A stretch of 64,000 bases of DNA from Candidatus Nanoarchaeia archaeon (GTDB lineage: Archaea > Nanobdellota > Nanobdellia > Pacearchaeales > GW2011-AR1), in NCBI GenBank assembly GCA_041501125.1, contig JBGQNO010000002.1:10287-74286 (forward strand), read 5' to 3'. The translations under genes were made by a program, and so were the position numbers. Positions 12,043-64,000 of the stretch are shown here, one piece after another. The notes under the pieces are model-generated. The model saw only the letters and a program-made list of their open reading frames with translations. It made no database searches and had not been told where the DNA came from. The first letter of the stretch is position 1; every line of letters begins with the position of its first letter.

Positions 12043-12810
12043 ATGGAATTAGTAAGAAACATCGTCAGGGTAGGCAACAGCGCAGGCGTCATTCTGCCAA
12101 AGGACTGGTATGGCGGGCAGGCAAAAGTTGTGCTGATGCAAAAGCCAATCAGCATAAAGAAAGATGTTCTTGAGATTCTAAGCCCTTATCTTGAATCAAT
12201 TCTTGGCATTTATCTTGTAGGCAGTTACGCAAGAAATGAGCAAACTTCAGACTCAGATGTCGATGTAATTGCAATATCCAAGAACCTAAAAAAAGAAATT
12301 ATTAGTGGTAAATATCACATCTCAGTTTATACTCTTGAAAGCATAGAAAAAACCCTGCAAGACAACGCAATAACGATAGCACCAAGATTATTGGAAGCAA
12401 GACCGATATTAAACACCTCGCTGCTTGATGCTTTGAAGCAGTTAATTACCAAAAAATTTGTATTCAGCAAATACCTGGAAGAAACAAAAAGAGTAATTAA
12501 AATAAATCACGGGCTGTTGAAGCTAGACCAAGAACAGGCAACTCCAGCTTCAGAAAGCATTGTGTATTCACTAATATTAAGGCTAAGGGGTATTTTTATT
12601 ATTAAAACAATCCTTAGAAAGGAAAAATATTCGACCCGTCTTTTCCTGAAATGGCTGGAGAAAGCCAATATGAGCAGAAAAGAGGCAATTATTTTATATA
12701 ATGTCTACAAAGCAATCAGAGACAATCAAAAGATTAAAGAAACCGTGAGAGTTGATTTAGCTGAGAAATTGCTCAGATTCGTAGAAAAAGAGATGGAAAA
12801 TGTCAAATAG
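12043..12810 (+). CDS. AbrB-like domain fused to a minimal nucleotidyltransferase with a helical C-terminal domain
   Basis: N-terminus VGNSAGVILPKDW (SpoVT/AbrB type), followed by the nucleotidyltransferase motif GSYARNEQTSDSDVDV. Confidence 0.6.
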   Translation: MELVRNIVRVGNSAGVILPKDWYGGQAKVVLMQKPISIKKDVLEILSPYLESILGIYLVGSYARNEQTSDSDVDVIAISKNLKKEIISGKYHISVYTLESIEKTLQDNAITIAPRLLEARPILNTSLLDALKQLITKKFVFSKYLEETKRVIKINHGLLKLDQEQATPASESIVYSLILRLRGIFIIKTILRKEKYSTRLFLKWLEKANMSRKEAIILYNVYKAIRDNQKIKETVRVDLAEKLLRFVEKEMENVK

Positions 12811-17466: not shown

Positions 17467-18051
17467 ATGAAAAGAACATTCGTTCCAAAAAAATACCTTA
17501 AGGTACATGAAGAAACCGCTAGAAATAAGGTTCTTGAGGTTTTATTTAAGTTTTCTGAAAAAGAATTTAGCTTAAGCGAGTTGGCAAAAGAAGCAGGTGT
17601 TGCCAAGGCAAACATCGGAAAAATATTAGAAGAATTGAATAGCAGGCAATTTATTGAGATAGTAAAACTAACCAAAATATGGCGCATAAAAGCAAATAGG
17701 AGCAACTGGTACTTTATCAGAAGCAAGATAATTTACAATCTTAATTTTGTATATCAAAGTGGTTTGGTAGAATTTTTAAATGAGCATTTCAAAAATCCGA
17801 AGGCAATAATTCTGTTTGGCAGTTTTAGAAAAGGTGAAGACATATCAAATTCCGACATAGACCTTGCTGTAGAAAGCGAAGATGCAAAAGAATATGAAAT
17901 TATAAAATTAAATTCTCTGGAAGAATTTGAGAAAATTATTGGAAGAAACATTCAAATTCATGTATTCAACAGAAAAAGCGTAGATCTTAATATATTTAAT
18001 AACATTGCAAATGGAATAATGCTATTAGGATTTTTAGAGGTGAAGCCATGA
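17467..18051 (+). CDS. winged-helix plus minimal nucleotidyltransferase (MNT-like, antitoxin-type)
   Basis: N-terminal HTH-like region (FSLSELAKEAGVAKANIGKILEEL) and nucleotidyltransferase motif GSFRKGEDISNSDIDL. There is a 4-nt overlap with the next ORF. Confidence 0.65.
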   Translation: MKRTFVPKKYLKVHEETARNKVLEVLFKFSEKEFSLSELAKEAGVAKANIGKILEELNSRQFIEIVKLTKIWRIKANRSNWYFIRSKIIYNLNFVYQSGLVEFLNEHFKNPKAIILFGSFRKGEDISNSDIDLAVESEDAKEYEIIKLNSLEEFEKIIGRNIQIHVFNRKSVDLNIFNNIANGIMLLGFLEVKP

Positions 18052-26208: not shown

Positions 26209-26422
26209 TGCCCCTGCCGGGATTCGCACCCGGGTTTCAGCCGTTCTCTAACTGCCTCAAGAAGCTTTTGGCTTTTTAGAGGCACAAACGAAAATTGCCT
26301 GTCCTGAGAGGACAGAGGTTATTGTCTCAACGACTAAACCTCGGCGAGTTTCGAGAGGGCCGCGTCACTAGCCTTTTCCTAATTTTGCAATGAGGAAAAT
26401 TTGGCTGCTAGACTACAGGGGC
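26209..26422 (-). tRNA. tRNA-Glu(CUC) with a 108-nt canonical intron and a second insert in the D-loop
   Basis: Acceptor GCCCCTG/CAGGGGC, anticodon stem CGGCC/GGCTG. A bulge-helix-bulge motif (CGGCC-CTCT-[CGA]-AACTCGCC ... GGCAGTT-AGAG-[AAC]-GGCTG) defines intron 26244-26351 and gives the loop CUCUCGC. T-arm CCGGG-TGCGAAT-CCCGG, A73, no encoded CCA. An extra hairpin TTTTCCT..AGGAAAA lies around 26368-26406. Confidence 0.75.
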
Positions 26423-27382
26423 ATGATTTTGAAAAGTGCAAAGTCTTTTTAAATGTTTAGAGTTAGAAAAGCCAATTTCTTGAATATATTTTTGAATCTC
26501 TGCCTTGCGTGACAAAAATATTTGCCTTCCTCTAATAATTTTAGAAGGATTAAAACCCAACTTCACAAATGAATCTCTTACGTTCTTGAGCAATTTAGGA
26601 ATATAGCTAACAAAAGAAATCCTGAGGTTTTTATTATTCTTTGAGATGTAATGAATTGAACCATCTGTATCTATCAAGCCTCTTATACAAGTTCTGAGAT
26701 AACCCTTATTTGCTTGTATCCATTTTGGAATGCCTTGATTATTCTGTTTTTTATTCCCAGATTCTAAACCCTTCTTTTTCAAAAAATTAACCAGATTTTT
26801 GCCATAAACTGATAGACAGACTGCATTGCGATTTTTAGATTTCATTACGCTTCCTTTTTCTCCAAGCAAATCAAAAAACAAATTTGAAACATAATGTGAA
26901 AGATATTCTTTATCATTCCTGCTATCGCCCGCAATTCTTAAAATGTAACATCTAATCTTCTTTCCTTTCTTGAATTGATTAATATTGCCATCGCCCAATA
27001 TAGTCCCAAATAGCTCTGACAGTCTCTCTGATTCTTCTGGCTCTTTAAATTGCTTGATATTTCTGGAAGAATTAAAGGCACCCTTAACTCTCCCCCAATT
27101 ATCATTTAATTTTTCTGTAACATGTCTACCAAAATCAATGTTAGCAATTCTGCATAATTTGTTATAACTCACTTCTGACAAGAGTACCTTCTCATTTCGC
27201 AATTCATTGCCAGTATAATGAACTGAAAGCCCCAATTGCTCTGCGAGTTTACTCCATGTTTTATCGGACTTAGCTAATTCTACTAATTCCTTTTGTTTTC
27301 CAGGCAGCAATCTTATTCTCACAGAATAGTATAAGATACCGAGGTTAATAAACTTTACTTGGCTACTATACCACAGGGGCAT
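26408..27382 (-). CDS. double-motif LAGLIDADG homing endonuclease with an N-terminal DNA-binding-like extension
   Basis: Motifs LSELFGTILGDGNI and LRTCIRGLIDTDGSI. The ATG overlaps a tRNA-like 5' fragment. The stop TAG is T13-A14-G15 of tRNA-Glu. Confidence 0.85.
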   Translation of the reverse strand: MPLWYSSQVKFINLGILYYSVRIRLLPGKQKELVELAKSDKTWSKLAEQLGLSVHYTGNELRNEKVLLSEVSYNKLCRIANIDFGRHVTEKLNDNWGRVKGAFNSSRNIKQFKEPEESERLSELFGTILGDGNINQFKKGKKIRCYILRIAGDSRNDKEYLSHYVSNLFFDLLGEKGSVMKSKNRNAVCLSVYGKNLVNFLKKKGLESGNKKQNNQGIPKWIQANKGYLRTCIRGLIDTDGSIHYISKNNKNLRISFVSYIPKLLKNVRDSFVKLGFNPSKIIRGRQIFLSRKAEIQKYIQEIGFSNSKHLKRLCTFQNHAPVV

Positions 27383-28010: not shown

Positions 28011-28040
28011 TTTTCCTCTTTTTGTTTTTTATAATGAATA

Positions 28041-28113
28041 TAGCCCTGCCAGGATTCGAACCTGGGTCCCAGCCTCCAGAGGGCCGGATCTTTGACCACT
28101 GGACGACAGGGCT
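28041..28113 (-). tRNA. tRNA-Gln(CUG)
   Basis: Acceptor AGCCCTG/CAGGGCT with an A1:U72 pair, anticodon arm CGGCC-CTCTGGA-GGCTG, T-arm CCAGG-TTCGAAT-CCTGG, A73. Length 73 nt, no CCA. Confidence 0.85.
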
Positions 28114-28203
28114 ATAGTTAAAGTATAAAATTGTAACTTAAAAAGTTAACCTTAGACATCCACCTTAGAAAAAATATTTAAACACCCGCTTGCAAGTTAA
28201 TCT

Positions 28204-28761: not shown

Positions 28762-28889
28762 AGCCTCAGGTGAGAATCGAACTCACGACCTCAACATGTC
28801 TGGATTACTCAGGGTAATCCTGAGCACCTTCAAAAATTTTATTTTTGAGGTTACCAATGTTGCGCTCTAACCGGCTGAGCTACTGAGGC
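28762..28889 (-). tRNA. tRNA-Thr(GGU) with a 54-nt intron at 37/38
   Basis: Acceptor GCCTCAG/CTGAGGC, D-arm GCTC-AGCCGGTTA-GAGC, anticodon stem CAACA/TGTTG, loop TTGGTA|A. Intron 28798-28851 folds into two hairpins. T-arm GTGAG-TTCGATT-CTCAC, U73. Confidence 0.85.
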
Positions 28890-29515
28890 GAATAAGAGTT
28901 TATGAAATTAATTTTATCTAAGTTTCTAAGTGGGACTCCTTTTAATATTTTCTGCATATTTCTTTTTGTAGCATAAATTTGATGATAGACATGGTTATTA
29001 TAATGCCAAGGACAAGAAGTAAATGGAATTTTGAGCTTTTTAAAAGTTTCAATACAAAAACTTGCTAAATGCTCGCTCGCAGTAGACAATCCAAAACCAT
29101 TACCCTTTTTACCACCATCAGTGTCCAACAATCCTGCTAACAAGTGAACATAATATTTCTGGGGAAGTTGAGGAATTTTTGCTATTTTTGCTTTTCTTCC
29201 AACAATATATCCTCTGTTTTCTAAAAACTGATAAATTAATTTTGATTCAATCCTGCAATTGTAAAGAGGATTTAATTTATTTTTAACTAATTCCTTTCTA
29301 GGCTTTATTCCAAAGAGCTCAGTAAACAATGGAAGGTAAACCTTATCACAAAAATCTGCAGAATTAGAAATAAAGTAAACATGGTATCTCTTTTGAAATT
29401 TGCCATTTAATCTTCTGGAAGAGGTTATAGGCAACGAGCCATCACCTAATAATAAACCAAAAAGATAAGCCAAATTTTCATTCCATCTTTTAGGAAAGAT
29501 TACTTTATTTAGCAT
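28880..29515 (-). CDS. double-motif LAGLIDADG homing endonuclease
   Basis: Motifs LAYLFGLLLGDGSL and VHLLAGLLDTDGGK. The last codons CCT CAG TAG are positions 2-10 of tRNA-Thr(GGU). Confidence 0.85.
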   Translation of the reverse strand: MLNKVIFPKRWNENLAYLFGLLLGDGSLPITSSRRLNGKFQKRYHVYFISNSADFCDKVYLPLFTELFGIKPRKELVKNKLNPLYNCRIESKLIYQFLENRGYIVGRKAKIAKIPQLPQKYYVHLLAGLLDTDGGKKGNGFGLSTASEHLASFCIETFKKLKIPFTSCPWHYNNHVYHQIYATKRNMQKILKGVPLRNLDKINFINSYSPQ

Positions 29516-40536: not shown

Positions 40537-41073
40537 ATGAAAATGGCAAGAAAAGAAAAGAAAATCAAGGCAATTTTCACAGGCGAGACAGTTTATAGCA
40601 ATACAAAAGAAGCAGTAAACTTATTTGGAAACTCTCGCATGGGAGAAATGGTTGAAGGCAAAATCCAATACTCAATGCAGGAAGCCATGCTTCTCGTAGA
40701 CGAAGGCAAGATGGATGTCTATGAAAAATCCAAAAAATTAAGCCAGAAAAAGTTCCTTGAAAAATGCAAGGACATGGACAAGAAATTCTCAACAAAATAC
40801 AGTGTTTTCAAAGACCTCAGGAAAAGAGGATATATTGTAAAAACAGCATTAAAATTCGGCGCAGACTTCCGTGTTTATGAAAAGGGCAAGCAGCCTGGCC
40901 AGGAGCATGCAAAATGGATTCTTTATCCAGTCAAGGAAACCGATACATTGACATGGCATGACTTCTCTGCCAAGAATCGTGTTGCGCATTCAACAAAAAA
41001 GAATCTTCTGATAGCAATTGTTGATGACGAAGGCGACATAACATACTATGAAGTCGCCTGGACACGACCATAG
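40537..41073 (+). CDS. endA: tRNA-splicing endonuclease
   Basis: YSVFKDLRKRGYIVKTALKFGADFRVY and HAKWILYPV, with the conserved catalytic-domain layout in 178 aa. Confidence 0.88.
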   Translation: MKMARKEKKIKAIFTGETVYSNTKEAVNLFGNSRMGEMVEGKIQYSMQEAMLLVDEGKMDVYEKSKKLSQKKFLEKCKDMDKKFSTKYSVFKDLRKRGYIVKTALKFGADFRVYEKGKQPGQEHAKWILYPVKETDTLTWHDFSAKNRVAHSTKKNLLIAIVDDEGDITYYEVAWTRP

Positions 41074-42246: not shown

Positions 42247-42546
42247 ATGGCAGAAACAAAAGAAAGATCCAATGAAAACATAGTATTCATCGGAAATAAA
42301 CCCTTCATGAACTATGTGACTGCTGTGGTTATGCAATTTACGACCAAGAATGCAGCCGAGGTTGCGATAAAAGCTCGTGGAAAGTTTATCAGCCGTGCAG
42401 TAGATGTAGCTGAAGTTTGCATGAGAAAATTTCTGAAAGAGCAGAACATAAAGGTTAAAGGCATATCTATTGGCAGCGAGGAATTTGAAAACAAGGAAGG
42501 CAAAAGAGTCAATGTCAGCATTATTGAGATAATGCTGGCCAAATAG
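42247..42546 (+). CDS. albA: Alba DNA/RNA-binding protein
   Basis: NIVFIGNKPFMNYVTAVVMQF...IKARGKFISRAVDVAEV. Confidence 0.85.
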   Translation: MAETKERSNENIVFIGNKPFMNYVTAVVMQFTTKNAAEVAIKARGKFISRAVDVAEVCMRKFLKEQNIKVKGISIGSEEFENKEGKRVNVSIIEIMLAK

Positions 42547-45655: not shown

Positions 45656-45698
45656 TATCAAGGATAAGTTTAAAACTTTATAAATATAACCAAAATTA

Positions 45699-45769
45699 GG
45701 GCCTATAGTCCAGTGGTAGAACGCGTCCATGGCATGGATGAGGCTCGGGTTCAATTCCCGATAGGTCCA
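45699..45769 (+). tRNA. tRNA-Ala(GGC)
   Basis: Acceptor GGGCCTA/TAGGTCC with a G3:U70 pair, anticodon arm CGTCC-ATGGCAT-GGATG, T-arm TCGGG-TTCAATT-CCCGA, A73, no CCA. Confidence 0.88.
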
Positions 45770-45778
45770 TTCTGCCCA

Positions 45779-45945
45779 TCGCAGCGAGAAAGCCTGCAAT
45801 CGCAATGAGGAGCTTCAAGACAAGAGCAGGACAAACATAGTACAATGAGGATGTCCGCAGCAAGAATGGGTCAGAATTAGTTACTTAACATAGCGAGAGT
45901 GTATCAAACATCATATTTCTTCAGCGAGGAATTGCATCAAACATA
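45779..45945 (+). repeat. tRNA-trailer repeat element, copy A
   Basis: Starts 10 nt after tRNA-Ala. It shares TCGCAGYGAG..TCGCAAYGAGGARCT (45779-45814), TCAAGACAAGAGC (45815-45827) and GTCAGAATTAGTTA (45870-45883) with copy B, and carries internal degenerate AGCGAG..ATCAAACAT units. Confidence 0.65.
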
Positions 45946-50717: not shown

Positions 50718-51620
50718 ATGGAAGCAATAAACCTTATTTTCTTAGGAACAGGACAGGCAGTACCGACAGAAAAGCGCAATCACTCGTCTATACTTTTGCA
50801 ATACGAGGATGAGAACATTCTTGTAGACTGCGGCGAAGGCACACAAAGGCAGTTCAGGAAAGCCAAGCTTAATCCGTGCAAGCTGACAAGGATACTAATT
50901 ACTCATTGGCACGGAGATCATGTTCTCGGATTGCCAGGCTTGCTGCAGACACTGGCATTGAATGGTTATAATAGAACTCTGCATGTATATATGCCGCGTG
51001 GAACATCGCATTTCTTCCAGAATATAATGAGAATGTTTGTTTACAAGGACAGCATAAAACTTGAAGTTCATGAAATTGATGAAGGCAAGGTTTTTGAAAA
51101 AAACAAGTTTTACATCCAAGCAGCCAGGATGAACCATGATACACCATGTTTGGCTTACTCATTTGTTGAAAAAGACAAAATCCGCATTGACAAAGCGAAA
51201 ATGAAAAAGCTCAAGATAAAACCCGGGCCTGAACTGAAAAATATCAAGAATGGTGAAAGCATAAAAATCAATGGCAAGACAATCAAGGCAAAGGATATAA
51301 CATACGAAGAAAAAGGCAGAAAAATAACATTTGTTCTTGATACAATAATAAATGAAAATGCTGTTGAGCTTGCAAAAAATTCTGACTTGCTGATCTGCGA
51401 ATCAACATATTCTGAACAGGAGAAAGAGCTTGCGCATGAGTACAAGCATCTGACTGCGAAGCAGGCAGCAGAAATTGCAAAGAAGTCAAAATCCCAGAGA
51501 CTGGTTTTGACACACATCAGCCAGCGCTACGACTACAAGGAAAAAATTCTTCTGCTAGAAGCAAGAAAAGTTTTCAAGAACACATCAGTTGCTGAAGACT
51601 TGATGAGTTTTGAAATGTAG
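50718..51620 (+). CDS. rnz: ribonuclease Z (tRNA 3' endonuclease)
   Basis: Metallo-beta-lactamase motif ITHWHGDH and the short-form RNase Z layout. Confidence 0.85.
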   Translation: MEAINLIFLGTGQAVPTEKRNHSSILLQYEDENILVDCGEGTQRQFRKAKLNPCKLTRILITHWHGDHVLGLPGLLQTLALNGYNRTLHVYMPRGTSHFFQNIMRMFVYKDSIKLEVHEIDEGKVFEKNKFYIQAARMNHDTPCLAYSFVEKDKIRIDKAKMKKLKIKPGPELKNIKNGESIKINGKTIKAKDITYEEKGRKITFVLDTIINENAVELAKNSDLLICESTYSEQEKELAHEYKHLTAKQAAEIAKKSKSQRLVLTHISQRYDYKEKILLLEARKVFKNTSVAEDLMSFEM

Positions 51621-63859: not shown

Positions 63860-63931
63860 AGCCTCCAGAGAGATTTGAACTCCCGACCCCCTGTTTACAA
63901 AACAGATGCTCTGCCACTGAGCTATGGAGGC
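63860..63931 (-). tRNA. tRNA-Thr(UGU)
   Basis: Acceptor GCCTCCA/TGGAGGC, D-arm GCTC-AGTGGCA-GAGC, anticodon arm TCTGT-TTTGTAA-ACAGG, T-arm GGGAG-TTCAAAT-CTCTC, U73. Confidence 0.88.
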
Positions 63932-63956
63932 AAGTCTATCTTACACTTGTATTCCG

Positions 63957-63985
63957 AGCCTCCTAGCGAATTGAGCTATGGAGGC
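63957..63985 (-). pseudogene. collapsed tRNA-Thr(UGU)-like fragment (minihelix)
   Basis: GCCTCCATAGCTCA-ATTCGCTA-GGAGGC-T repeats the first 14 nt of the tRNA lying 54 nt downstream. It ends in an acceptor-3'-like GGAGGCT. Confidence 0.5.
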
Positions 63986-64000
63986 GACTATTAAAAAAGC

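Follow-up and report, generated by a model that had tools for sequence, protein, structure and literature searches.

tRNA trailers in the window

Nine tRNA genes were detected in the window (the whole stretch of 64,000 nucleotides that was analysed), and three of them, tRNA-Ala(GGC), tRNA-Val(GAC) and tRNA-Thr(UGU), are directly followed by related sequences, referred to here as copies A, B and C. Each copy forms an imperfect hairpin in which an outer stem (P1) leads to a conserved core, made up of a 5' strand (M1) and a 3' strand (M2), with a variable hairpin (P2) between the two. The GC content of the element-bearing trailers is 47–50%, against 11–22% in the ordinary tRNA trailers of the window and a window mean of 37.7%. 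The genes and parts concerned are:

45699..45769, forward strand: tRNA-Ala(GGC), host of copy A (ARAGORN; Rfam tRNA, 58.7 bits)
45770..45780, forward strand: copy A, P1 5' strand TTCTGCCCATC, pairing with 45866-45876, where T45871 is bulged (covariance model, MFE fold)
45781..45790, forward strand: copy A, core 5' strand M1 GCAGCGAGAA (covariance model)
45791..45853, forward strand: copy A, enlarged P2 region, in which a 3-bp stem (AGC/GCT) encloses CTGCAATCGCAATGAGGA, also holding the second-unit fragments TCAAGACAAGA and CAATGAGGA
45854..45865, forward strand: copy A, core 3' strand M2 TCCGCAGCAAGA (covariance model)
45866..45883, forward strand: copy A, P1 3' strand ATGGGTCAGAA, then the TTAGTTA tail motif (M3)
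45891..45944, forward strand: two truncated relic units of trailer A, ATAGCGAGAG..ATCAAACAT and TCAGCGAGGAAT..ATCAAACAT (repeat search)
50718..51620, forward strand: RNase Z gene (TIGR02651 ribonuclease Z, 358 bits against a cut-off of 293; Pfam Lactamase_B_2 and Lactamase_B_4)
61429..61515, forward strand: tRNA-Val(GAC) with an intron, host of copy B (ARAGORN; Rfam)
61516..61584, forward strand: copy B, full long-type unit (covariance model, 61.4 bits, outside the seed)
61516-61527 with 61573-61584, forward strand: copy B, P1
61528-61538, forward strand: copy B, M1 GCAGTGAGCAA
61539-61560, forward strand: copy B, P2
61561-61572, forward strand: copy B, M2 TGCGCAACAAGA
61590..61638, forward strand: tail of trailer B, a conserved module TCAAGACAAGAGCGAGTCAGAATTAGTTA, then a stub TGTTTGCCGCAGCGAG
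63860..63931, reverse strand: tRNA-Thr(UGU), host of copy C (ARAGORN; Rfam)
63790..63859, reverse strand: copy C, short-type unit (covariance model, 73.4 bits)
63859-63850, reverse strand: copy C, P1 5' strand
63849-63840, reverse strand: copy C, M1 GCAGCGAGGA
63839-63826, reverse strand: copy C, P2 hairpin ATGTC-ATCA-GGCAT
63825-63815, reverse strand: copy C, M2 CCGCAGCAAGA
63814-63804, reverse strand: copy C, P1 3' strand GTGGAACAAAA
63803-63790, reverse strand: copy C, tail GTAGAATTATTAGT

The expanded P2 region of copy A is an insertion in the covariance-model alignment and agrees, judged by eye, at about 27/32 positions with the unit that follows tRNA-Val in the close relative L054 (L-numbers denote loci on related metagenome contigs). 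The relic units of trailer A each consist of an M1-like motif and a P1 3' strand with no partner strand, and neither is matched by the covariance model. In trailer B, the stub repeats 61520-61535, and the module before it is near-identical in L054 and, after tRNA-Val and tRNA-Pro, in L047. The RNase Z gene lies 5–13 kb from the three copies; the window also encodes EndA (40537-41073), and the tRNAs here have many introns.

The original prediction had placed the three sequences correctly, and the similarities it listed are present: a 36-nt block common to A and B (29 of 36 positions identical), TCAAGACAAGAGC and GTCAGAATTAGTTA exact in both, CCGCAGCAAGA common to A and C, and an opening motif, GCAGYGAG, which occurs seven times in the window against 2.7 expected, four times within the three trailers. 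None of the other tRNAs carries a copy, as had been stated, though six others were detected and not seven. The element does adjoin the tRNA, but it was said to start 9–11 nt after the discriminator; it starts at discriminator+1, and those 9–11 nt are the 5' strand of P1. The supposed array of degenerate units of the form (C)GCAGCGAG...ATCAAACAT proved to be a mis-parse, the conserved object being one hairpin with two covarying stems and an invariant loop. ATCAAACAT is the 3' strand of P1, which pairs with 5' strands of the TGTTTGAT type, and alone it is not enriched in the window (33 matches, 41 expected). What looked like extra 'units' in trailers A and B are the truncated remains of additional copies. 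A match to GCAGCGAG at 42473, inside the Alba gene, was discarded as chance.

Fold, covariation and tRNA linkage

The element is a GC-rich imperfect hairpin of 57–110 nt whose position 1 is the first base after the tRNA discriminator. P1 comprises 11–12 bp, one base of its 3' strand being bulged, and is free in sequence but covarying; its length is nearly constant (11–13 nt) and the position of the bulge is fixed. It is followed by a near-invariant, purine-rich internal loop with CCGCAGCGAGGAA as the 5' strand and UCCGCAGCAAGA as the 3' strand. Read 5' to 3', these are nearly identical (C-GCA-GC-GA-GGA and UCC-GCA-GC-AA-G), which gives the loop a pseudo-two-fold symmetry. P2 then follows, either as a hairpin of 13–14 nt (short type) or as a covarying 3-bp stem with a further CCGCA...GCGAGGA loop (long type), and a short conserved motif, UAGU, is found after P1. 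The spacing of M1 and M2 varies (14, 23, 24 and 26 nt) with no multiple-of-three constraint; on this ground, and because the only ORFs are short and overlap the tRNA, a coding function was rejected.

Single-sequence MFE folds, done independently, gave the same architecture in all copies. In the seed alignment (A2), 94.6% of cells were paired and 11 of 19 pairs had changes on both sides, with none of 500 shuffles as good and slid controls only 30–44% paired; the corresponding values for the 16-copy alignment (A4) were 98.2% and 13 of 18 pairs, with 67 compensatory cells, none of 500 shuffles as good and slid controls at 27–40%. The covariance model of A4 has 70 positions and 18 pairs. Compensatory change is evident between the orthologues that follow tRNA-Thr, where P1 reads TCCAC/GTGGA in the window and CTCGC/GCGAG in L007, and P2 reads ATGTC..GGCAT and ACTCT..AGAGT, respectively. 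It extends into the core, where C-G becomes U-A in copy B (61532/61567) and GGA/UCC becomes GCA/UGC, as also in copy B, or GAA/UUC. The C-G to U-A double change and the MFE folds favour a 2-bp central helix between two 3x2 loops; the alternative central pairing of GCAGC with GCAGC (5 bp, 2-nt bulges) gains a mismatch in copy B and in the L047 copy after tRNA-Val. Since the 11-nt loop strands are invariant across contigs of 32–40% GC, the loop appears to be under strong selection. Neither G.U versus A.C counts nor sense versus antisense folding energy tells the strand apart, the sense strand being the more stable in just 5 of 15 copies; as folding energy is blind to strand, the strand assignment rests on genomic context.

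That context was established with a metagenome scan that used just the two core strands as its pattern. Together with the covariance model it yielded 16 copies, all in low-GC archaeal contigs and all on the strand of the tRNA, as the original prediction had held, and every low-GC pattern match lay directly 3' of a tRNA-type 3' end. The first covariance model was seeded with copy C and nine metagenome copies. Copies A and B, left out of the seed, were recovered at 52.3 bits (E ~1e-13) and 61.4 bits (E ~1e-16), which unites the three window copies in one family, and no further copy was found on either strand of the window at E<=10. The unseeded copies found by the model, all of them starting 0–2 nt from a tRNA end, were A, B, the copy at L047 690-760 after tRNA-Val(CAC), L054 and L056. 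True copies scored 52–87 bits and one truncated tandem copy 41 bits, compared with 11–24 bits for chance pattern matches in high-GC contigs.

All full-length copies start 0–2 nt after a tRNA or tRNA-like 3' end, and the truncated tandem copy (L047 2336-2371) follows another unit. At least six host specificities were identified (Ala, Val, Thr, Leu, Pro and Gln). At two loci the host is tRNA-like rather than a full tRNA: an acceptor-stem minihelix in L028 and a T arm plus acceptor 3' strand in L023. The first trailer base is U in all copies but one (G in L047 2336-2371), and the 4 nt before the insertion point vary (TCCA, CCCA, GGCT, CGCA, GGCG, GCTA). Downstream genes are convergent in six cases and co-directional in six, so a tRNA or tRNA-like 3' end is the only constant neighbour.

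The claim that the element matches no known RNA family stood up to covariance-model searches. Rfam 15 scans of the window and 11 loci at gathering thresholds returned only tRNAs, and a scan of the three trailers at E<=10 gave only noise (snoZ5, outside the unit, at 20 bits where the threshold is 60). Among GTDB representative genomes, which do not include the source species, the 36-nt block pattern of A and B had five chance matches, four in bacterial MAGs and one in the haloarchaeon Haloplanus, with none in a DPANN genome. The core pattern had no match in viral contigs, and blastn found none in phages and plasmids. Full-text literature searches with the core strings retrieved just unrelated primer sequences, and a keyword search retrieved only the Nanoarchaeum equitans precedent discussed below. 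Likenesses to RNase P CR-I (GAGGAAAGUCC), SRP RNA helix 8 (GCAGCCAAGG) and the sarcin-ricin loop (CGAGAGGAACCGCAG) are presumably too short or mis-registered to count.

Turnover among relatives and possible explanations

The clade carrying the element consists of low-GC DPANN (Nanoarchaeota/Pacearchaeota-like) archaea, and within it the element is lost, truncated or swapped even among relatives whose S3Ae proteins cluster at >=90% identity. In four such near-identical strains, namely the window, L054, L056 and L057, the tRNA and promoter flanks are near-identical and the spacer from tRNA-Val to L44e differs greatly: it contains one of two different long-type units (one whose P2 is like that of copy A in the window), a unit of the short type, or no more than a stub. 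tRNA-Thr has no element in L054, L056 and L057, and tRNA-Val has only a stub in L057. A truncated unit follows tRNA-Leu in L056, where the same tRNA in the window and L054 has none. The P1 sequence TTCTGCCCATC occurs after tRNA-Ala in the window and after tRNA-Pro in L047, as TGTTTGTTCACC does after tRNA-Leu(AAG) in L040 and tRNA-Leu(TAG) in L056, and these hosts have similar tRNA 3' ends. In copy B, a 16-nt direct repeat brackets the unit and its tail, and L047 carries tandem copies. Att-like duplicated tRNA 3' ends, not part of the element, are present at L008 and L023. In more distant relatives the same tRNAs are followed by no element (L014, S3Ae 53% identical; L017, 62%) or by only a degenerate copy (L008, 60%), so simple vertical inheritance fails.

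We consider there to be about an even chance that the element is a previously undescribed structured RNA family, forming a dicistronic tRNA-sRNA unit with its host gene, and that its loop docks a protein, which may be a dimer. TATA boxes lie 25–33 nt upstream of the mature 5' ends of the tRNAs, and none lies between tRNA and element. Since the stem begins at the last base of the tRNA, the element can have no promoter of its own, and with no room for one it would be transcribed from the tRNA promoter as part of a tRNA-element dicistronic precursor. That the element is transcribed together with the tRNA, to yield a trailer RNA or a protein-binding RNA, had been suggested originally and would be the simplest explanation of a conserved family always on the same strand. 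A cut by RNase Z, which is encoded in the window, after the discriminator would generate both the mature tRNA 3' end and a flush 5' end of the element, releasing a rod-like RNA of roughly 60–70 nt, according to the scheme of the N. equitans tRNA-C/D box sRNA precursors. The element RNA is thus probably a by-product of tRNA 3' processing; we infer the transcript, its ends and its stability, and as P1 opens exactly where RNase Z would cut, a stable helix there could impede cleavage instead of aiding it. The functional site would be the invariant symmetric loop and not the stems, and this loop is most likely a protein docking site, possibly for a homodimer, rather than an antisense guide. Copies would be dispensable at any single tRNA and would turn over through recombination, both among the repeated core motifs and among tRNA 3' ends that resemble one another.

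Alternatively, the hairpin could stay attached to the pre-tRNA for a time and act on its own tRNA, by protecting the precursor 3' end from exonucleases, by insulating the neighbouring gene from read-through, or by recruiting or timing an enzyme for processing or modification at a fixed distance, one helical turn, from the 3' end. The exact discriminator+1 position and a P1 of 11–13 nt with its bulge at a fixed place agree with such a cis-acting role, and the copies behind tRNA-like fragments in L028 and L023 suggest that the acceptor end itself matters. However, most tRNAs of the same genome have no element, and its loss from tRNA-Thr and tRNA-Val in the relatives named above indicates that it is not needed for their maturation. 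The downstream genes have mixed orientations, half of them co-directional, which also led us to reject a 3' UTR hairpin of a convergent gene, and no T run of >=5 occurs within 70 nt downstream of 15 copies, as a hairpin-plus-oligo-T terminator would need. We regard the cis-acting role as doubtful. Copies gained, lost and swapped between very close relatives make a selfish or recombination-spread repeat at tRNA 3' flanks a serious rival, an archaeal analogue of REP/BIME or MITE with little or no cellular function, its loop recognised on folded single-stranded DNA by a trans-acting HUH/Y1 transposase or recombinase, or the repeat copied by gene conversion. Such turnover, together with truncated relics, is behaviour that typifies a selfish repeat more than a housekeeping sRNA gene, and it keeps this reading alive; the variable tRNA-Val to L44e spacer, the truncated unit at tRNA-Leu in L056, identical P1 stems behind different tRNAs, the direct repeat around copy B, the tandem copies of L047, the att-like duplications and the nearly equal folding of both strands all fit it. 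Against it, copies within one genome are not near-identical, and their P1 termini differ and covary, the opposite of conserved terminal repeats, although elsewhere, in other genomes, one and the same P1 sequence does stand behind different tRNAs. The 4 nt preceding the insertion point show no conservation, which makes a DNA-sequence target unlikely. No transposase or integrase was found among the scanned window ORFs, viral contigs, phages and plasmids gave no match, and the loop strands are invariant at 32–40% GC. On balance we judge a selfish repeat to be unlikely. A little less likely still is a DPANN-specific hitchhiker at the RNA level, in which a two-fold symmetric protein-binding (or catalytic) passenger on tRNA genes, with a dedicated partner protein, would spread from tRNA to tRNA, either by RNase Z release, re-joining to another tRNA 3' end and copying back into the genome, or by tRNA-templated gene conversion.

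A leftover end of a virus or plasmid integrated at the tRNA 3' end, which the original prediction had offered as its second option, is very improbable. In its favour, M1 and M2 are direct repeats about 25 bp apart, like the arm-type integrase sites of an att arm, and the element does adjoin the tRNA end, with duplicated tRNA 3' ends nearby in L008 and L023. Yet none of the three window copies has a duplicated tRNA 3' end, a second att copy or a foreign element gene beside it. Housekeeping genes in synteny flank them, with tRNA-Val followed by the L44e-S3Ae operon in all relatives over a spacer of just 65–180 nt, and a double-stranded DNA arm leaves unexplained the compensatory changes that keep the structure; viral, phage and plasmid matches are absent from the searches above. 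We give equally little weight to a new small self-cleaving ribozyme that would form tRNA 3' ends or free itself from the precursor. The element's conserved core between variable helices and its position flush with the tRNA 3' end would suit one, since for cleavage at their own 5' ends HDV-like or hatchet ribozymes would have to be placed in this way, but cmscan of the three trailers at E<=10 matched no ribozyme family, the fold is a simple rod for which no pseudoknot is predicted and whose core is ~11 bp away from the P1 5' end, near-perfect two-fold loop symmetry is atypical for ribozyme cores, and RNase Z is present. A divergent guide sRNA, of the C/D box (or H/ACA) type, seems extremely improbable, even though the genomic arrangement and phylogenetic neighbourhood are those of the sRNAs behind N. 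equitans tRNAs (PMC3491384) and a terminal stem stands alongside conserved boxes. No copy contains RUGAUGA, UGAUGA or CUGA in the alignments, or a single-stranded variable guide of 10–12 nt; the 14 nt between the conserved strands of short copies form a hairpin, and the variable positions are paired and covarying while the conserved ones form the loops, a pattern opposite to that of guide RNAs. The geometry of a tandem GA k-turn is lacking, as 6 nt separate P1 from the candidate GA dinucleotides of the 5' strand and the partner of GGA is UCC, and no snoRNA match falls on the element. For H/ACA, the internal loop is invariant instead of a variable pocket, a 4-nt loop caps an upper stem of 5 bp, and not every copy has ACA after P1 (copy C reads GTGGAACAAAA, L007 reads GCGAGTCAAAA).

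DPANN archaea have tiny genomes and an unusual tRNA biology, which includes split and permuted tRNAs, tRNAs with multiple introns and the ability to live without RNase P, and to our knowledge almost nothing is known of their non-coding RNAs outside Nanoarchaeum. The element appears to be a well-supported structured RNA family whose invariant symmetric purine-rich loop resembles a specific docking site. If it is a released RNP component, it would be a new class of small RNA that uses tRNA processing for its own biogenesis; if selfish, it would be the first known archaeal repeat to occupy the 3' flanks of tRNAs, and would mark very fast micro-evolution at tRNA loci. In both cases, the covariance model is concrete and the precursor is a testable substrate for the RNase Z of the window.

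Comparison with known systems

In N. equitans, also a DPANN archaeon, precursors that join a tRNA and a C/D box sRNA as a dicistronic transcript are cut by RNase Z, and the sRNA genes are described as mobile (PMC3491384). In both cases a small structured RNA gene without its own promoter adjoins a tRNA 3' end, and an RNase Z cut at the discriminator would make the 5' end of the element. Unlike those sRNAs, the element has no C, D, C' or D' boxes, guides or k-turn, and its conserved part is a symmetric internal loop, its helices being the variable parts.

The bulge-helix-bulge (BHB), the substrate of the splicing endonuclease in archaea, has two 3-nt bulges on opposite strands, 4 bp apart, and is defined by structure and not by sequence. 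The element resembles it as a pseudo-two-fold helix interruption that could plausibly be read by a dimeric protein, and EndA is encoded in the window. Identity with a BHB was rejected on the loop sizes and the covariation of copy B: the element has an invariant sequence and, as that covariation suggests, a 2-bp central helix flanked by two 3x2 loops, and its longer loop strands lie on the sides opposite to the BHB bulges.

Among bacterial repeats, REP/BIME elements with their RAYT transposases, and the PATE/MITE derivatives of IS200/IS605, are likewise short GC-rich imperfect palindromes at gene 3' ends with many copies per genome, rapid gain and loss at strain level, tandem and truncated copies, and a short motif beside the hairpin (UAGU in the element). 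The element differs in that its stems vary between copies and the loop is conserved, and in being tied to tRNA 3' ends with single-base precision; no RAYT-like or TnpA-like gene was seen among the scanned window ORFs.

Functional tRNA 3' trailers include the E. coli 3'ETS-leuZ sponge RNA and the tRF-1 trailers, and in Haloferax a tRNA-like element lets RNase Z make the 5' end of 5S rRNA. As in these, the RNA considered here lies 3' of a tRNA or tRNA-like structure and would be freed by tRNA 3' processing. Such trailers have a function of their own and act by base pairing or are single cases, whereas the element is a multi-copy family with an invariant loop that resembles a protein site.

The trailer element and its fold

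The window, a DPANN archaeal segment of 37.7% GC, encodes an S3Ae protein whose best named matches are in Nanoarchaeota and Pacearchaeota MAGs, along with other housekeeping genes (aminoacyl-tRNA synthetases, DNA polymerase B, RFC, TFIIB, TFE, ribosomal proteins, EndA and RNase Z). Nine tRNA genes were detected with ARAGORN and Rfam. The coordinates of RNase Z and of further genes are as follows:

12043–12810 (+), small nucleotidyltransferase-fold protein (NTP_transf_2/Polbeta), with a weak match, well under the model's cut-off, to the anti-phage Hailong HalB model
17467–18051 (+), second small NTP_transf_2/Polbeta protein
26408–27382 (−), free-standing LAGLIDADG endonuclease-like ORF
28880–29515 (−), second free-standing LAGLIDADG endonuclease-like ORF
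50718–51620, RNase Z
53601–58946 (−), 1781-aa ORF with no Pfam domain in precomputed tables
58943–60775 (−), 610-aa ORF without a match in a Pfam search

The LAGLIDADG-like ORFs adjoin tRNA-Gln (28040–28114) and a 128-nt intron-bearing tRNA (28762–28889), with the 5' end of which the second ORF overlaps by about 10 nt. The adjacent 1781-aa and 610-aa ORFs remain syntenic in all relatives, the former varying in size among close strains (1658–1988 aa).

The predicted trailer sequences were found 3' of tRNA-Ala(GGC), tRNA-Val(GAC) and tRNA-Thr(UGU) (copies A, B and C), on the strand of the tRNA in all three cases, and the blocks said to be shared were recovered, that of A and B at 29/36 identity and two 13–14-mers exactly. 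These trailers have 47–50% GC, versus 11–22% in the ordinary tRNA trailers of the window. Trailers A and B contain relic half-units, and unit B is bracketed by a 16-nt direct repeat.

Exact-protein look-ups of the neighbouring S3Ae yielded syntenic contigs at several distances. In the related contig L007, whose S3Ae is 77% identical to that of the window, the orthologous tRNA-Thr trailer retains GCAGCGAGGAA and TCCGCAGCAAGAG, with both flanking segments changed in a compensatory manner: the outer stem reads TCCAC/GTGGA in the window versus CTCGC/GCGAG in L007, and the inner stem ATGTC..GGCAT versus ACTCT..AGAGT. Such differences identify the element as a single hairpin, and the array of degenerate repeat units in the original prediction was not borne out. 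The conserved motifs form the two strands of an internal loop (the core), which lies between an outer stem (P1) and an apical hairpin (P2).

P1 spans 11–12 bp; its 5' strand starts with U at discriminator+1, and its 3' strand carries a single bulged base, five base pairs away from the core. The core strands, C-GCA-GC-GA-GGA (5') and UCC-GCA-GC-AA-G (3'), are nearly equal when each is read 5' to 3', so the loop is pseudo-two-fold symmetric. In MFE folds, the central GC pairs with GC and GGA with UCC, leaving two 3x2 purine-rich loops; this register is backed by double changes in copy B (C-G to U-A, and GGA/UCC to GCA/UGC) and by GAA/UUC in contig L054. P2 occurs either as a short hairpin of 13–14 nt, often capped by a WUCA loop, or in a long form, where a covarying 3-bp stem (ACC/GGT, ACA/TGT, ACT/AGT, AGC/GCT) surrounds another CCGCA...GCGAGGA loop. 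P1 is usually followed by a UAGU-type motif, and a longer tail module, CAAGAGCRAGUCAGAAUUAGU, is near-identical in copy B, L054 and both trailers of contig L047.

When a first alignment of 10 sequences was scored against the proposed structure, pairing was kept in 94.6% of cells, and 11 pairs were changed on both sides; none of 500 shuffles did as well, and slid controls reached only 30–44%. The covariance model R1 scored true copies at 52–87 bits, one truncated tandem copy at 41 and chance pattern matches at 11–24. Non-seed copies recovered by R1 were window copies B (61.4 bits) and A (52.3 bits, P2 with a 60-nt insertion) and those 3' of tRNA-Val(CAC) in L047 and of tRNA-Val in L054 and L056, every one starting 0–2 nt from the tRNA end; no further match was found in the window at E ≤ 10. 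In a 16-copy alignment, 98.2% of cells pair, with compensatory changes in 13 of the 18 pairs (67 compensatory cells). This covariation indicates that the single-strand fold is under selection.

Linkage to tRNA 3' ends and turnover

A single metagenome scan with the two loop strands only (GCAGYGAGRAA N(5–35) CCGCAGCAAGA) returned 35 loci, those of high GC being chance matches within coding sequence. At all nine low-GC loci (32–40% GC; two from the same sequence), the pattern lay about 11–13 nt past a tRNA-type 3' end and was flanked by complementary segments. The host tRNAs were Leu(UAG), Leu(AAG), Pro(UGG), Pro(CGG) and Gln(CUG); further ones, intron-rich, were missed by the tools and readable by eye. 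There are two exceptions: the L028 element comes after an acceptor-stem-like minihelix that lies 28 nt past tRNA-Gln, and that of L023 after a duplicated tRNA-Thr T arm and acceptor 3' strand. Among the copies found, the co-orientation with the tRNA predicted from the window extends beyond it as an exact, exclusive, same-strand link to tRNA 3' ends.

In locus L008 (304–350), a tRNA 3' end and trailer start are directly duplicated (CCCCGCAT + TTyATCAAAAATGC, occurring twice); in L023 (1490–1612), the T loop of the repeated tRNA-Thr segment is interrupted by a 53-nt insert. The two duplications resemble traces left by site-specific integration at tRNA genes.

Between close relatives, the element shows striking instability. 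The S3Ae proteins of the window, L054, L056 and L057 cluster at at least 90% identity, and the tRNA-Val and L44e promoter flanks are near-identical; the spacer between them contains:

window, a long-type unit and tail
L054, a different long-type unit, with P2 resembling window copy A
L056, a short-type unit
L057, only a stub, P1-5' and GCAGCGAG

A copy 3' of tRNA-Thr occurs in the window, L007 and L023 but not in L054, L056, L057 or L017, and tRNA-Leu(UAG) has a truncated unit in L056 and none in the window. The same P1 sequence is found 3' of different tRNAs sharing similar 3' ends. Together with the relics and the direct repeat, these differences imply that copies are individually dispensable and are spread or erased by recombination. 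Such behaviour leaves a REP/MITE-like selfish repeat some probability, though a low one, and it weakens the case that tRNA maturation depends on the element in cis, which we regard as unlikely.

Two other differences were seen among these relatives. The tRNA-Val(GAC) gene contains a 14-nt intron in the window (gene at 61429–61515) and L056 (9463–9549) and none in L054 (9439–9511) or L057 (9544–9616), and given the S3Ae clustering this is a presence/absence polymorphism. A 157-aa ORF without a Pfam match lies between tRNA-Thr and Gins51 in L054 (11776–12249, −), L056 (11773–12246, −) and L057 (11776–12249, −), at exactly the site of copy C in the window.

Proposed biogenesis and relation to known RNAs

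In the window and related loci, TATA boxes lie 25–33 nt 5' of the mature tRNA 5' ends (for example, TATA-like boxes in the window flanks 45668–45698 and 61393–61428). Since they occur only there, with no space for another, the element would be transcribed from the tRNA promoter. RNase Z cleavage after the discriminator would then yield a rod-like RNA whose P1 is flush, and release by such a cut has been proposed for tRNA-Val/sRNA8 of N. equitans (PMC3491384). Since the stems vary and the loop is invariant, this RNA would not be a guide but would present a symmetric surface for docking, the simplest candidate partner being a dimeric protein; we give this main reading about an even chance. Folding energy cannot assign the element's strand, and the genes downstream are in mixed orientation.

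From the TATA position, the tRNA transcripts would also have no leader or almost none, as in Nanoarchaeum, which lacks RNase P. Just 5' of tRNA-Thr, a conserved hairpin, GCCTCCATAGCTCAATTCGCTAGGAGGC (window 63932–63990, −; L007 870–922; L054 12375–12435), copies the acceptor stem and 5' part of that tRNA and is followed by TCGGAATACAAG..AAGATAGACTT, resembling the tail of the trailer element. Given the TATA box 5' of this hairpin, the tRNA-Thr leader seems to be structured and tRNA-mimicking.

Searches of Rfam 15 with the element from the window, including trailers A, B and C, and from related loci gave no match, in agreement with the original prediction, and none was found among the viral, phage and plasmid sequences searched. 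A C/D box sRNA was rejected (no C/D boxes, guides or k-turn geometry), as were an H/ACA RNA (no H/ACA layout), a bulge-helix-bulge motif (the loops do not fit) and coding sequence; no oligo-T run follows the element. A literature search by motif strings and keywords brought up only the N. equitans precedent. The structured elements at the tRNA 3' ends of these DPANN archaea are genuine and form a family not described before; it lies outside every known RNA family, though by analogy it would work like the known tRNA-sRNA dicistronic units.
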